A DNA stretch of 63,855 nucleotides, filler included, from Rhabdomonas costata (Eukaryota): the NCBI GenBank assembly GCA_019059605.1. It is 38 parts of 38 records of this genome, joined end to end, with 100 filler letters (N's around TTAATTAATTAA, not from the genome) between each part and the next. Parts side by side here need not be neighbours in the genome. Positions count along the whole stretch, not along the records: positions 60,592 to 62,173 come from JAHMHO010012631.1; 37 more parts are not named here. One strand, written 5' to 3'. Positions within the stretch are counted from its first letter, which is position 1. Each line of letters begins with the position of its first letter. Positions 25,150 through 62,561 of this stretch are shown here, in pieces. The translations under genes and the position numbers were made by a program. The notes under the pieces were generated by a model. That model did not search any database and was not told the origin of the DNA. It saw nothing but the letters and a program-made list of their open reading frames with translations.

Positions 25150-25249
25150 NNNNNNNNNNNNNNNNNNNNNNNNNNNNNNNNNNNNNNNNNNNNTTAATTA
25201 ATTAANNNNNNNNNNNNNNNNNNNNNNNNNNNNNNNNNNNNNNNNNNNN

Positions 25250-25440
25250 AAGGCCTCCATCATCCCGGCGTCGGAGAGGAACCGTGCCACGTCCACGGGA
25301 AGCATCCGGCGCATCCCAGCCAGGAAGTCCATCTTGCTGATGAACCCGGTGCAGTCCATGTCGCACGCGTTGAAGGCCCCCGTACACACAGCGCTGAGCT
25401 GCTTGGGGTCGTTCAGGATGGCCTCCAGGTCCCTCGCCAT
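25250..25440 (-). CDS. EF-hand Ca-binding domain, truncated by the contig end
   Basis: AFNACDMDCTGFISKMDFLAGM is an EF-hand loop of the form DxDxxGxIxxxD/E-F. Confidence 0.85.
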
Positions 25441-25641
25441 TCGCATCGGGGGAAGGTTGGGGATCTGAGTGCGGAGAGGGAGAAGGCTACAATCTGAGTG
25501 GAACGAGAGAAGGGGGATGACATGCTGGACAGCAGCATCGTGATCATGCTGTACCGCGGAGGACTCACCCTGGTACAAAAACATCGCTTCACTTCTGGAC
25601 TATGTTCTCTTCCTTACTGGAGGGTGGGGCGGGCCGCATAC

Positions 25642-31733: not shown

Positions 31734-31982
31734 ATGGTGACGGGGTCCAGGGAACTCCGGGTGAGCAGAGGGAATGAGAAGGAGCTGCGGTCAACTCCGC
31801 AGCCACACAAAACCACAGCAGCAAAATTGGCCAAAAGCCTGACAAACTGTGAAAGAGGGGCTTCAACCCTGCAAAACCAACANNNNNNNNNNNNNNNNNN
31901 NNNNNNNNNNNNNNNNNNNNNNNNNNTTAATTAATTAANNNNNNNNNNNNNNNNNNNNNNNNNNNNNNNNNNNNNNNNNNNN

Positions 31983-33520
31983 TAGGCATCGGTGGGGTGC
32001 TCAACCTTCCCGTCAGCGTGCTTCGCAAAGCGCTTCCGCTCGCTGGGGTGCACCGGGTCCATCGTAGGAAACGGCCACCCTCCAAAGCGAGTCTTGCGGT
32101 ACTGCGTGTAGGCTTTCTCAATCTCAGCGACGGTGTTCATCACGAAGGGCCCGTGCTTCTCCACGGGCTCCCCAATGGGCCTGCCCTGCAGTAGTAGCAG
32201 ATGGGCAGTGTGGGCTTCTGGAGCGGTGACCGGGAGGTCTGCCGTGGGATCCACGACTGCCCCGTGGCGAGCTCGGAGCTCCTCTCTGGCATCCCCAATC
32301 AGAACGACAGCTTCCCCTTCATAGTAGTACAGGCAACGGTTGGCAGCGGATCCCGATGATGCCTTTGGAAGGGTCAGAGTGCAGCCGGCGGCGACTCTGA
32401 TCACCCAGATCGCAACATCGGAGTCAGGATGACTTGCCCAGCTCTCTGGGGGAGGGGGAGGGGCATCAATAAACAACTGCGGAGAGGACGGGTTGGGGAA
32501 GTATCCGGTGGAACCCGCAATGACCCGAATGCTGTGGAAGGCAGCCGAGGAGGGAGTTTCTGGTTCGGGCTCGGGCTGTTGGGCGACAGTGGTCGTCGAT
32601 GCGGAGATGGCCCCGGAGGGGTTGAGGGGGCGTGCAGTGATGTGAAGCGTGGGGATTTGGGGGTTCCACAGCATGGCAAAGTGAGGCTGGGCTGCCTTGC
32701 TGGCCCGAGGAAGATTCAGCCAGATCTGGAACAGCTCCATGGGGTTTCCATTCTCGGAATCCAAGAGCGGAAACATCTCCGAGTGCTGCACACCTGCGAC
32801 AAGTTGGACGACAGAGACGTTCTGTCTGTGTTCCGGAGGAGGATGTGGCAACGGTTAAAAAAACCTTGTTATTCTAGACAAACGCGCTAAAATTTTTCCA
32901 AATCTTTTCTCATAAGGGACCAGGAACGGGTCTCATCATACAATGACAACACGATAAAACGCGCAAACTTCAAAAATTTTCCGAACCAGAGAGTTCATCA
33001 GAGAAAATAAACAAATACGAATGAGATAACAACTGCTTCCGAATTACCCATTAAAAACACATGCAGATCATCAAGCAAGACTGTGGCGAACAAAACAAAA
33101 ACCTCACTGCAGCCACAGAGGTCCGCATGGTTGGATGCACACTGTGGCGAGTTCTGAGGAAAGGGTGAGCGAGTGATGGGCGAGAGGTCTCACACCACGG
33201 CCCGTGGTCAGCCACTGCACATCCCCTTCCCCGTATCGAGCTGTCGCCCCAAGAGAGTCACTGTGGTCAATCACCCCCCGCCGGGTCACCGTCACGGTCT
33301 CAAACCCGCAGTGCGGGTGAGCAGGGAACCCCGGCACCTTGGTTCCGTGGTACATGCTCCACCCTTCCTGGTAAGAGAAGTCCTGCCCGAGGCTCCGGCC
33401 CTGCAGCAGGGAAGGATCTGGGCCCATCTCTGGAGTACCGGCGGGGTATCGGTCAACGTGGTGGACGCAAAACAAGAAGGGGTCCAAGCAAGTCCAAGGC
33501 TGACGGCCCAGGGCGAATTT
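31983..33520 (-). CDS. Pirin (bicupin) family protein, nearly complete, two exons
   Basis: [74 protein letters not shown]. Phase 1 GT-AG intron at 33195-32794. Confidence 0.96.
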
Positions 33521-54759: not shown

Positions 54760-55279
54760 GACCATGACCGCTGGTAGAGGGGAAAACTTCAGGGCGTCCA
54801 CCTCCATTGTAGTTGGTCAAGTAGCTGGGACTGCAGGCATTATAGTTGGTGGTTTCACTGATGTGAACGCATACTGAAAGGGGGCTGCTGTAGGCTGACC
54901 AACGTAGGTGACTCTTGGGGCTGGTCTCCATTGGATCCCTTAAAATTTCACATCCAATCTCGTAAGCGCCTTAATTGGTGACGTGGTTCTTCCTAGCATT
55001 TTTGTGAGCAAGCCAGGACTTCATGCCTTGCATGAAATCCAAAATCACGTTGGGTGTACGGAAGCGTTCCGGTAGGGCATTTGCGTATGTTTTGAACTTA
55101 GCTTTGTAGTCAGAGTAATCTCCGTTGTACATTTTAACATTGTGAGTTAGCTCGTAGATGAGTAGGTAGTGGTATTGCTTTGTTATGTAGTGCGCCTTTA
55201 GCATGTATGTGAACTGGTGCCATGAGGTGACGGTCTGCACGTTAGAAAATATGCCTCGTCCTGCGTCTCCAAAGGCCAT
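54760..55279 (-). mobile_element. gag: Ty3/Gypsy LTR retrotransposon Gag remnant
   Basis: SWHQFTYMLKAHY..LIYEL..NVKM..GDYSDYKAKFKTYANALP..VILDFMQGMK is a Retrotrans_gag capsid pattern. It is followed, after a frameshift, by the PTTMEVDA (PMExD) motif. Confidence 0.85.
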
Positions 55280-55819
55280 TTGTGTGCGCGGGTGGTTTCA
55301 AAAAATTTCTTCACCGTGGAAATCTGTAGTAAAAAAGCTGTATGCATAAACAAAACCATTCAAAATAAAGCCCTTTTCTTTCAATTTCGTTAACAAAACA
55401 ACAAAAAATGGACACTAAAAGTCGGTAAGAAAAACAAAAACACNNNNNNNNNNNNNNNNNNNNNNNNNNNNNNNNNNNNNNNNNNNNTTAATTAATTAAN
55501 NNNNNNNNNNNNNNNNNNNNNNNNNNNNNNNNNNNNNNNNNNNTTGTTTTTGTCTGCTTTTTATTTCAAACCCGTTTTGGGACACTTTGTAGGGTGTGAT
55601 GGTGAGGATGTTGGTTGTTGTACGGAATTTGGAGGTGGTATCAGTAGCTGAGAGCTCTTTTGCACAGCGTTCTTGAATGCTGGGCTGAACCTGAAGCTTC
55701 ATTGCACCCCCCCCCCTAACGAAAGGGTGTGCTTTGGGTCAACGGAAAGGTCCCTGTGCGTGAGGTCCATGCCACCCTCTTCTCTCCTCGCGACTGGGGC
55801 GCCCCCCGCCTCGCCTGAC

Positions 55820-57125
55820 CTGGGGCGGCTTGCGGTGCACACTGTGACCCACGACCTGCTGCGGAACTTCTGCCCCAGCTGGGACCCTGAAGGGAGATAC
55901 CTGTACTTCCTGAGCTCGCGGGAGTTCGAGCCGGTGTATGACACCCTGCTGTTTGGGCTAAGCTTCCCCGCAGGCACCCGACCCTACGTGGTGCTGCTGC
56001 AGCGCTCCACGCCTAACCCCTTCCTGGAGGAATTGCGGCCCCCAGACCGCGACGAGGACGATAGTGAGGAGGAGGAGGAGGAAGAGGACGTCGAGGAAAG
56101 CTCAGGTCTGCTTAAGCGTCTGGCGCCCAACGCTGATGTCGGGGGGGGGGAGACCTGTGCTTTGTCGGCAGGTGTGGAGGGTCTCTGCGTGGTTCTGTGC
56201 GGATCTCTTTGTTGTTCGCAAGGGGTTGCTGCCCGGTTGTCCTTCGCGGACACTTCACTGTGGGTGGTGGAATGGTGTGCACCAGGCGATTGCTTTCCTG
56301 TTGGGGCGTTTGGGAGCTCCGCTCAGCTACACGGCTTTTTTATAGTACCTTTGGCTTGTTTTCGGAGAACCTTAGCTCCAGTGGTGCTGCGGGTTGTTGA
56401 GCTTTGGCTATTGTGTGCATTTGCAGACGTGTGGGTGGTGGAGATTGACTTTGAGGGCATCCAGGACCGGGTGGTAGCCTTTCCGGTTAGTGCGGGTCGC
56501 TACTCCCGAATCTCCGGGTAGGCTTGCCTCGCTGCACGTGACTTTTCTCGCAGTGGCGTTTATGGAATGGTACCCGACGGAAATAGTATAGTTTGCTTTG
56601 GTGCCCCACCTCTGGTTGGACCCCTTCCAGCACCATACCAAGCTGTGCTCAAAGGTGTTTACGATGTTTACGACGGATGTTATGATAGTGAAGCAGCAGA
56701 TAGCGTTAAGGTTTTATAGTCTTGTTTATTGGGTATGGATGTACTTGGCGGGAATAATCTCGGGAAGTATCCGATTGCTTCGTCCACAAGACGGAATTAC
56801 AAAACGAAAGTCTAGATTGGCCTCCGGTCAATTCACTGTTACCCTTCCTTTTCAGGTTCCGGCTTATCCGGTTCGAAACCTATGCACATATAGAAAGATC
56901 GAAGGCCTTCTTTTGGCTTGGCGTCCCCTTAGATTGAGCTGCACGTCTCTACAAAGCCGACCAGTGGGCGTAGCTCGTGCCAACCAAGGATTTCAAGCCG
57001 TTCTCAACTCACTGACAGTCTTCCTGTTTTGCATTTTGTGGGCAAACCTCAGGCTGAAGGATGACCGTGTGGTATACTTGGTGCACCCCCTGGCCCCTGG
57101 GAAGAGCGTGGGGTTTGCCCACACA
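55820..57125 (+). CDS. tri: Tricorn protease (peptidase S41) beta-propeller region, three exons
   Basis: Exon ending 56105 (PSWDPEGRYLYFLSSREFEPVYDTLLFGLSFPAGTRPYVVLLQRSTPNPF), exon 56427-56517 (VEIDFEGIQDRVVAFPVSAGRYSRISG) and exon 57053-end. GT-AG introns with matching phases 1 and 2. Confidence 0.9.
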
Positions 57126-60491: not shown

Positions 60492-61537
60492 NNNNNNNNN
60501 NNNNNNNNNNNNNNNNNNNNNNNNNNNNNNNNNNNTTAATTAATTAANNNNNNNNNNNNNNNNNNNNNNNNNNNNNNNNNNNNNNNNNNNNGTTTTTTGG
60601 TAAGAGCCGGTGATCAGGAATTCATCTAAAGTGACCCTTTTTTGGAGACGCAGCGTCTCGCGTTTCGACGTCTCCGTTTTTTCATCGGTTTTTTGACGGG
60701 GGCTGCATATTTATTTTCTGTATCACTGTCTGGGCAGCCACGACCCTCCACACGGCCCCGCGTGGGTAGTGGCGGGCCGGCCCGGCACGACTCTGGGGTT
60801 CCTGCGGACGGGGCTGCGGACCCCTCCCGCATCAGCCCAGCCTCCTCTTCTGAGGTCTGCGTTGTGGTGGTCTTGTCTTTGGGGGAAAGGATTGCCCCAC
60901 GGGTCGTCCCTGCCATTTTCCCTGTTTCTGTATTTTCCTCCCAATTCCCCTTCTTAATTGTGTTGCATCCATTTATCTGATACGCTTGCATGCTAATTTG
61001 TCCAAGACAAGCCTGTAGCGTTAGTCTAACCCTCTTCACAACTTTCATACAAGGCAGTATGTCTACACGCTCGAATTTTCCCGCTCGGCAGCTAAGGAAG
61101 GCGAGGAACCCTCCGCCTGCAGCGCTGACAATGCGACGACAAAGCAACGTTTCTATGGATTTTGGGGCGAACGAGACCCTCTCACCCACGGGAAAGCCCA
61201 GTTGTGATAGTAAAACGTCAATTCAATTCCAAAAAAATTCTTCCCCAAAGGACGGAAGGCATGGCCGTGCCGAGGGGTCTGCCCCAATGGCCGCCCCTTT
61301 GATCTCCCCGTTGGAGCTCGACGTGCTCTCTGGTGGGGAGGAGGATCCACCTGGCGACAAGCCCCCGGTCTCTCCTCGCTCTCAGGCAAGGGTACGTGGG
61401 CAGACGCGAGAGAATGTGTGGAGGGGGTTCCATGGGAATAAGAGAAGGAGAGTTGTGTGGCTAGATACGTCAACTGAGGCTGATGCTCTCGCCGGGTTTC
61501 TTTTTCTTTTCGTGTGCCTTGTACCTTCGTACTAGTC

Positions 61538-61603
61538 AAGGACGGACAGAAACCAAGCCTGCTTTGTCTTCACGTAGGTTGTGCACCTGATGAGTCCGTC
61601 TTT
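61538..61603 (+). ncRNA. Hammerhead-ribozyme-like motif, type II topology (variant or decayed)
   Basis: aaggacggac-a-GAAA-ccaag(cctg)ctttG-TC-ttcacg(taggt)tgtgcac-CTGATGA-gtccgtcttt: a 10-bp stem II closes both core boxes, with a GUC cleavage triplet at 61566-61568. Confidence 0.6.
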
Positions 61604-62561
61604 TTTTGTTCCCCTTGTTTTGTTGGAAGATTAGAGCAGTATGTGTGGGGTCATCCGGGACTCCTTCGGTTTGTCTTCGTGAGGTATCCCATCTTGTATT
61701 GTGGCGTACGTTTTCACTACATGTTCTTCTTTGATCTACTACTTCATATCATTGCTTCAGTTTTTTTTCCGCACCATGGACCGGAACAGATCCGAACGAA
61801 CGAACGAACGAAGGCTCCACTGTGGAGTACACTGAACCTCCCGAACGGAGGGAAGCTCTTGCGAGTGGAAGAACGACAGCTGATCCGCGGCATTATCGGC
61901 AAGCAACGACGCCACTACGGGCAGTCCTTACGATCACAATTCATCTCCCAGCGCACCACACGCAAGTAAGAACTGACCCCCAGGCAGAAGCCACTGCCTC
62001 AAATTTACCTTCAATCCCTTGTATTAGTAAAGCCCCGAAATCCGGTAAAAGCACTTGAAGGTATTCCCCTCCTCCGCTCGACTTTCGGCTTCCTCTTCTC
62101 GTCAGCTGGCCTCTGTGATGCCTCGAGTGCGGAAGTCCGTCTCTGCAGCCCAGGAGCTGGACCGCCACTGCTCNNNNNNNNNNNNNNNNNNNNNNNNNNN
62201 NNNNNNNNNNNNNNNNNTTAATTAATTAANNNNNNNNNNNNNNNNNNNNNNNNNNNNNNNNNNNNNNNNNNNNGTGGTGGGTGTGTTTGGGTGGGGGTGT
62301 TCTCACACATCGTGGTGAACCCTAAAACGTGAAGCCCTCGAAACCTTCCGCGAGGTACACCCAAAAGCAGCCACGGGCGCAGTGCAAAAAGCCACACTCT
62401 TCCCAGCGCAACATAACCTGTCCTCTAATTATCAAAATAGACATCAATCGGAGGCACTACTTTACAATCGGTAATGAGCGGTATCTTTCCACAAAACGGC
62501 CGAACTCGCGATAAGTTACACCACATGCACGACAAAAAGATCCAGGCAGCTGGACAGGGAC

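Follow-up and report, generated by a model that had tools for sequence, protein, structure and literature searches.

A candidate type II hammerhead ribozyme near the 3′ end of Chlamys-like Penelope elements

The window analyzed here, a stretch of 63,855 nt from the eukaryote Rhabdomonas costata, is a chain of ~1.58-kb contigs with N linkers, in which only 60592–62173 is contiguous around a hammerhead-like motif at 61538–61603. A preliminary description had taken this motif for a type II ribozyme of an undescribed retroelement family. Type II hammerheads are known from bacteria, archaea, phages and viroid-like RNAs, plus one doubtful human case, according to the available text of PMC6155905, PMC3088659, PMC8782182 and PMC10085705, and the locus raises the question of what carries such a motif in a eukaryote and whether it can cleave. 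The answer that we favor, and regard as fairly probable, is that a type II hammerhead core lies near the 3′ end of a Chlamys-like Penelope clade and is predicted to be self-cleaving, probably only as a dimer in the lineages with short palindromes.

The window motif, its copies and its host gene

The hammerhead core (C3 U4 G5 A6 N7 G8 A9 / G12 A13 A14 A15.1 / U16.1 H17) is complete in the window copy, follows the type II order G-S-C (order as defined in the available text of PMC10085705) and is open at stem II. The preliminary description was right on both core boxes, on the open stem II of 10 bp and on the extra A before GAAA, whereas the sequence reading given below puts the predicted cut 12 bases downstream of the earlier proposal (Table 1). 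The type II descriptor matched the window at this site only (random Markov sequence: 0.08 per 60 kb, 5 in 60 sets; strict form: 0 of 60 sets), and an RNA model of the motif, R1, had one match in the window, which was one of its training sequences. On the other hand, the Rfam hammerhead models, which the preliminary description had proposed as a check, gave no match at the locus or in 11 relatives, and RF02276 matched nowhere in the genome.

Table 1. Coordinates of the motif and of its surroundings in the window
Feature	Position	Strand	Evidence or remark
Host GT-AG intron	60855–61250	+	Joint in one low-depth run X1 contig; RNA status of X1 guessed
Host exon	61251–61391	+	Start in X1 contig; in frame with exons 60738–60854 and 62106–62173
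Inferred host intron holding the element fragment	61392–62105	+	GT and AG ends, in-frame flanking exons
F1 family 3′-UTR fragment, 5′-truncated	61421–61639 (ends approximate)	+	Copies, shared 3′ ends, similarity to L215 and L174
Stem II, 5′ arm (open end, type II topology)	61538–61547	+	Pairs with 61594–61603; covariation
Extra A between C11.1 and G12	61548	+	In most relatives faces an extra base after A9
Core box GAAA (G12-A13-A14-A15.1)	61549–61552	+	A13–A15 invariant, G12 in 21/22 rows
Stem III	61552–61579	+	A61552–U61579, C61553–G61578, bulge in 5′ strand, distal helix 61560–61562 with 61574–61576
H17, GUU triplet	61580	+	Predicted cleavage 3′ of U61580
Stem I region, self-complementary hexamer GUGCAC	61581–61586	+	Homoduplex −7.9 kcal/mol
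Core box CUGAUGA (C3-U4-G5-A6-U7-G8-A9)	61587–61593	+	N7 takes all four bases, A6 in 20/22 rows
Stem II, 3′ arm	61594–61603	+	Pairs with 61538–61547
TG tract at 3′ junction	61640–61647	+	Likely target site; shorter tract at 61415–61420

A search of the own genome with 61400–61800 gave 40 scored matches of 107 candidates, centered on the motif. These copies (family F1) have variable 5′ starts and a common 3′ end near 61639; (TG)2+ follows 18 of the 27 copies with a recognizable 3′ end (background 0.098), and TG repeats stand at the 5′ edge of 14/41 (background 0.016). From the variable 5′ ends, the common 3′ end and the flanking TG repeats we infer 5′-truncated retroposition into microsatellites, with the + strand as the sense strand. 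F1 decays evenly (identity to the majority base 0.874 in the core and 0.880 outside it, 38 rows; the near-duplicates L002 and L034 were left out of the conservation counts), and the whole core is kept in 11 of 40 rows, the window copy among them. The window copy is a 5′-truncated, neutrally decaying relic that points to the family. One F1 copy (L024, around 604–852) has an imperfect direct repeat of ~35 nt on its two sides, which may be a tail or a long target-site duplication, and L039:1–453 is a mixed F2-F1-F2 tandem in which a decayed F1 stands between two near-identical copies of a second family, F2.

The flanks had been described as divergent, intronless, stop-riddled ORF remnants, with a profile search for RT and GIY-YIG domains suggested. 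This reading failed: the flanks of the motif are single-copy in the own genome apart from one 94% allele-like contig (L002), the two flank ORFs had no Pfam match, the element protein profile had none either, and the remnants gave way to host exons and introns. On the + strand a GT-AG intron is spliced at 60855–61250 in one possibly-RNA contig of run X1, which spans the intron joint and has the motif outside its coverage, and the exons 60738–60854, 61251–61391 and 62106 onward form an open three-exon translation in frame. Because of this joint and the three exons reading in frame, the element fragment likely sits in sense orientation inside the intron 61392–62105; it measures ~220 nt and comes from the 3′ UTR of a Chlamys-like Penelope element, with the TG tract as its likely insertion site. 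A second short repeat stands at 61793–61867 and has a (GAAC)n end, ~80% matches in 5 other contigs and a folding z of −2.1 on its minus strand. Elsewhere in the window, fold-back inverted repeats lie exactly at contig ends (60366–60491, 16523–16736 and 33458–33562); they are probably assembly artefacts and account for mir-27-like Rfam noise. Unrelated contigs carry a Pirin C-terminal domain, a PD40 repeat, a Ty3-type gag remnant and a weak EF-hand (31980–32776, 55769–56518, 54974–55279 and 25240–25584, respectively).

The parent element

The contig L039 also led to the coding sequence. Its family F2 has stem II arms that differ from those of F1 yet are still complementary, and one F2 copy extends into coding sequence, a piece that opened the way to further families. 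A 119-aa fragment had 110 genome matches, one of which (L165) has a 397-aa open RT frame, and the L165 RT had 26 longer homologues and, at E ≤ 1e-30, 195 representative clusters that include many fragments. None of 8 tested proteins was recognized by Pfam, with no GIY-YIG or RT match, and a PDB sequence search returned nothing; however, the top 15 Foldseek PDB matches of the predicted RT fold (model pLDDT 92) were all telomerase RTs, and GIY-YIG and PF26215 are present in the nearest Atlas clusters. No relatives of the RT were found in the viral contigs or prokaryote genomes searched. The claim of an undescribed retroelement family in a eukaryote is thus borne out by the RT ORF association and the telomerase-like RT fold, and the readings as a C/D-box snoRNA or a tRNA-derived SINE were dropped once the ORF link appeared. 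Apart from these elements, L106 (G000:C421) has a non-LTR RT frame of 889 aa with a T-rich tail and TG repeats behind it; we take it to resemble CRE/SLACS elements.

Several features assign the carrier, at the level of sequence, to a Chlamys-like Penelope clade. A GIY-YIG-like box (R, H, E and N residues) is located at the N-terminus and has no CxxC in all 17 of the 26 homologues showing the box; the RT proteins carry CxC, DR(N/S)P, DK-like and GYP-type motifs and a long insertion between RT motifs A and B; and the families show microsatellite targeting, 5′ truncation and partial tandem copies (tandem arrangement in L206, L209/L210 and L215). An ORF1 with a CX2CX4HX3-4C knuckle follows directly past the 3′ UTR in L209, L210, L213, L214 and L217, implying head-to-tail arrays and a two-ORF element. 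In the available text of PMC8557442 (2021), Chlamys is likewise given an N-terminal GIY-YIG without CCHH, CxC, a DK-like motif, the A–B insertion, microsatellite targets, 5′ truncation, tandem copies, an upstream ORF1 with a CCHC knuckle and a 3′-end hammerhead. Two differences stand out: RT motif C here is YRDN, not YxDD (25/27 aligned rows, L165:2–1192 and P0001–P0026; 59 of 62 motif matches among 173 proteins), which has 0 matches in the PMC8557442 supplement, and the hammerheads listed there (File S2) are all of type I, most Chlamys having none in the text available.

A walk upstream from F1 returned only the query itself. Since none of the own-genome F1 loci L001–L041 reaches an ORF, the link from F1 to the ORF is made through L215, which encodes an RT, has an intact C-terminal ORF and the same 3′ end, and is 77% identical to F1 over 105 nt, and through the ORF-linked L174 (79% over 66 nt). 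L215 and L174 group on the RT tree with support 96/95 (L177, a fragment too short, was not placed in the tree). The proposed role as a 5′ processing ribozyme did not hold for the position, as the motif lies at the 3′ end, 102–334 nt past the stop; it survives in modified form, in that a cut within head-to-tail arrays would leave the following unit with its 5′ end.

Conservation and register across lineages

Fourteen metagenome loci were retrieved by protein alone, of which 12 had a 3′ UTR and 11 were distinct; L208 (ORF broken off, without UTR), L216 (contig ending in the ORF) and L210 (duplicate of L209) were left out. These 11 rows were aligned by MAFFT with 11 own-genome rows, hand-picked as well preserved from 39 examined, to give 22 rows. 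An intact GAAA/UH/CUGANGA core stands on the sense strand of each of these 11 metagenome relatives, 102–334 nt past the ORF stop, and the strict descriptor found 10/12 UTR-bearing loci, the two missed having a bulge after three stem II pairs. Over the 22 rows, 90.6% of cells were paired with 45 two-sided changes, while 0/500 shuffles reached either value and slid controls gave 33–51%; row relatedness inflates these values, yet each of the 6 counted stem II pairs has two-sided changes. Among the metagenome relatives compensatory changes occur in stems I, II and III, so that all three core-adjacent helices covary, although the window copy forms its full stem I only between two molecules. The dispersed copies, the intact cores of relatives and the covariation which the preliminary description had asked for were all found, and its type II topology is borne out by core order, covariation and descriptor controls.

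These results bear on the objection that an ordinary repeat end resembles a hammerhead by chance. The missing Rfam match fits such a resemblance, but the 11/11 intact cores in relatives retrieved by protein alone contradict it, as do the cross-lineage covariation and the controls: 50 loci of other RT classes, which we take to be Ty3, DIRS-like and CRE-like, gave 0 descriptor matches, no F1/F2 match and one weak 21-bit match to R1, and R1 found 0 of 66 viral loci with the bare core pattern. We consider chance hardly credible.

The compensatory changes also fix the register, with stem III as ACC/GGU, the predicted cut after U61580 and stem I as GUGCAC. A15.1-U16.1 is paired in 22/22 rows; L207 and L217 have U-A in place of C-G at 15.2-16.2; 1.1-2.1 is paired in 22/22 rows as four types (G-C, U-A, A-U and U-G) and 1.2-2.2 in 19/22; the first stem II pair is G-C in 18/22. 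H17 is U in 17, A in 3 and C in 2 rows and never G, and the invariant block ahead of CUGANGA is A-G-G-U-H, not GUC. The third pair of stem III is ambiguous, as G61577 (16.3) can take C61554 or C61559. The extra A61548 is no defect in itself, for most relatives carry a mismatch pair there (C-A in 11/22 rows; the partner base after A9 has been lost in F1), and the same extra pair occurs in type I hammerheads of Penelope-like elements (PLEs), e.g. PLE-X1_cBra (File S2 of PMC8557442).

The preliminary description had instead drawn stem III as a hairpin with loop CCUG ending in GUC, a cut after C61568 and a stem I hairpin at 61569–61586. A61552-U61567 and C61553-G61566 do pair in 32/36 F1 copies, and the monomer energy of this register (−11.2) is slightly better than that of the re-registered monomer (−8.7). 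Nevertheless, its 1.1-2.1 position is mismatched in 35/36 F1 copies and pairs in 1/36, such a mismatch being a disqualifier in the available text of PMC3088659; 61554–61565 pairs in 2/37 copies, C-U stands at 15.3 in 33/37, and other lineages lack a conserved GUH at that site, whereas in the new stem I 61581–61586 pairs in 31/37 and 61582–61585 in 32/37 F1 copies. On these pairing counts and the cross-lineage block we rejected the earlier register, which we hold to be very improbable. The noted complementarity of CCUG and UAGG is real; it belongs to stem III or to a slipped alternative and not to a loop-loop contact.

Stem I palindromes and cleavage

Between H17 and C3 the window copy has only GUGCAC, and a hexamer cannot close with a 2-nt loop. 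Other rows carry the palindromes GUCGAC, GUCGCGAC, GGUACC, AGCGCU and AAACGCGUUU, plus two offset palindromes, and the remaining rows have 1–4-bp stem I hairpins, non-palindromic hairpins occurring in more than half of the rows. Six distinct perfect palindromes were counted among 12 distinct even-length stem I regions, against 1.4 expected given the two terminal pairs; the nominal P of 0.0004 is too small because several rows are related, and four independent cases would give 0.035. Palindromes occur on both sides of the best-supported split of the RT tree. Since the hexamer stem I cannot close in one molecule, a symmetric dimer with swapped stem II arms is the simplest reading. In the predicted dimer MFE of the window copy all 6 palindrome bases pair between molecules, whereas most or all of the stem I region does so in only 4/22 rows, and the active-register dimer, at −33 to −34, falls short of the −40.6 of two monomer MFEs. 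The chances of a palindrome-mediated dimer appear evenly balanced.

Alternatively, all members could cleave as monomers, a 1–2-bp stem I being held by tertiary contacts or element proteins and the palindromes being incidental. Many rows with 2–4-bp stem I hairpins and 3–8-nt loops fit this proposal, as do the very weak stems tolerated in natural hammerheads (available text of PMC3088659). However, the hexamers leave a 2-nt loop, palindromes exceed expectation, and no cognate pseudoknot partner emerged among five tested pairings (best p = 0.027, uncorrected), including none between loop I and the 3′ tail (cognate versus permuted duplex energy p = 0.45, 20 rows). We therefore judge monomeric cleavage throughout to be unlikely, and an active type II hammerhead working as a stem-I-swapped dimer in a eukaryotic retrotransposon clade to be a tentative proposal, somewhat short of even.

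Beyond what was observed (RT ORF association, position, strand, core conservation, covariation and register), the motif is very probably hammerhead-derived and conserved, and from its sequence cleavage by at least some members is likely. Evidence against catalysis comes from the sister lineage F2/F3 (L039–L074, L133, L139, L153, L167, L170 and L204), which keeps stem II and the palindrome but has A6 (CUGAUGA) in 4/26 copies, mostly reading CUGUUGA; three of the four are probably one tandem locus, and every other contig aligned to an F3 copy reads U6, at place 166. The A6U change also lengthens a hairpin that hides C3-U4-G5. A natural A6C variant cleaves slowly (available text of PMC3088659), and an A6U variant may be slow or dead. 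A6U is found in most F2/F3 copies, yet no family exceeds F3 in summed depth, so that the element may be able to do without catalysis. As for the window copy, it is probably inactive or weak, since a slipped pairing of stem III, in which the cut site is hidden, is preferred there: the slipped stem III in F1 and L215 pairs U16.1 and U17, and relative to the free fold the active register costs 7.4 kcal/mol in the window copy and 6.3 kcal/mol in L215. In this modelling, measurable cleavage of the window copy is doubtful. As monomers, most rows fold into rods, and in some of these GAAAC is paired with GUUUC. The stem I region together with C3 contains GUUUC in 9/22 rows (L154, L161, L176, L206, L209, L211, L213, L214 and L218), and this complement of the GAAAC core box is a possible conserved off-state; the slipped and rod folds may be off-states, or structure may matter more than catalysis.

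Taken further, these data could mean that the motif descends from a hammerhead and is now a non-catalytic structure near the 3′ end, used in RT recognition, priming or as an RNA-RNA dimer signal. The persistence of stem II and palindrome beside A6U and the rod folds pairing the core box would agree with this, as would the spread of most Chlamys and Naiad elements without canonical hammerheads (available text of PMC8557442). On the other hand, all 12 catalytic-core positions are intact in 11/11 unselected metagenome rows whose RTs are only 40–50% identical to the query, and the pattern is exactly that of a hammerhead, with a free N7 and an H17 that is not G. A purely structural role for the family thus seems rather improbable.

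In the favored reading, self-cleavage is predicted after the U of GGUU, and in short-palindrome lineages it would likely take place only as a dimer. Two copies, either tandem pseudo-LTRs or two transcripts, would pair via their palindromes and exchange the arms of stem II, which would bring GAAA, stem III and the cut site of one copy together with CUGANGA of the other, and cleavage would free unit-length RNA from tandem or read-through transcripts. The predicted cut is ~59 nt (F1) and 57 nt (L206) ahead of the element 3′ end; as insertions include these ~57–59 nt, the RT template must be uncut or re-ligated (circular) RNA, whose copying has been proposed for PLEs in general (available text of PMC6765202).

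Compared with bacterial and phage type II hammerheads (Perreault et al. 2011, PMC3088659, in the available text; RF02276), the motif shares the order GAAA, cut site, CUGANGA, the open stem II and the core. Here, by contrast, it belongs to a eukaryotic retroelement, stem II has 6–10 bp with an extra 1×1 or 0×1 position at its base, stem I has 1–4 bp or is a palindrome, and neither an RF02276 match nor a loop I–3′ tail pseudoknot was found, the latter occurring in the majority, not all, of the bacterial examples in that text. Minimal type I PLE hammerheads (Cervera and de la Peña 2014, PMC4209133, text available) are alike in their place in the pseudo-LTR or 3′ end of a PLE, a long helix II, an extra base after A9, G10.1-C11.1 and a palindromic helix implying dimers; there the palindrome is in helix III of a type I ribozyme, whereas here it is helix I of a type II motif with a long helix III bulged in its 5′ strand. 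Non-LTR retrozymes and non-autonomous PLE derivatives such as MRC1 (bioRxiv 10.64898/2026.07.22.740005 and PMC8557442, as far as their available text goes) also form short, dispersed or tandem non-coding copies sharing a PLE 3′ end; the retrozymes are tandem units with one type I (or type III) hammerhead each, while the F1 copies are dispersed, carry a type II motif and look like 5′-truncated 3′ ends, not like fixed-length units. No type II hammerhead in eukaryotic retroelements was found in a full-text search of mainly open-access literature; the available text of two further sources (bioRxiv 2026.09.16.752053 and bioRxiv 2026.07.22.740005) has none, and the whole word 'type II' has zero matches in PMC7229834 and PMC7761336. 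Hammerheads in PLEs are already known, but we did not find a type II motif in Penelope elements reported in the literature searched.

Perreault et al. (PMC3088659, available text) raised the question of whether repeats can propagate only with a hammerhead of type I architecture; the type II core of a widespread retroelement clade argues against such a need. According to the available text of Craig et al. (PMC8557442), most PLEs with an N-terminal EN have no canonical hammerheads, and eight Naiads with 'half cores' were flagged; the permuted form offers a concrete target to seek in such elements, and, if our reading is true, permuted ribozymes that type I descriptors overlook may be present in some 'hammerhead-less' Chlamys or Naiad elements. 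The natural contrasts between palindromic and hairpin stem I and between A6 and A6U allow the role of PLE ribozymes to be tested directly. Nature would have a new design in a dimer-gated type II scaffold, and cleavage gated by a palindrome would have arisen in PLEs a second time, in another permutation that mirrors the known stem-III dimer.
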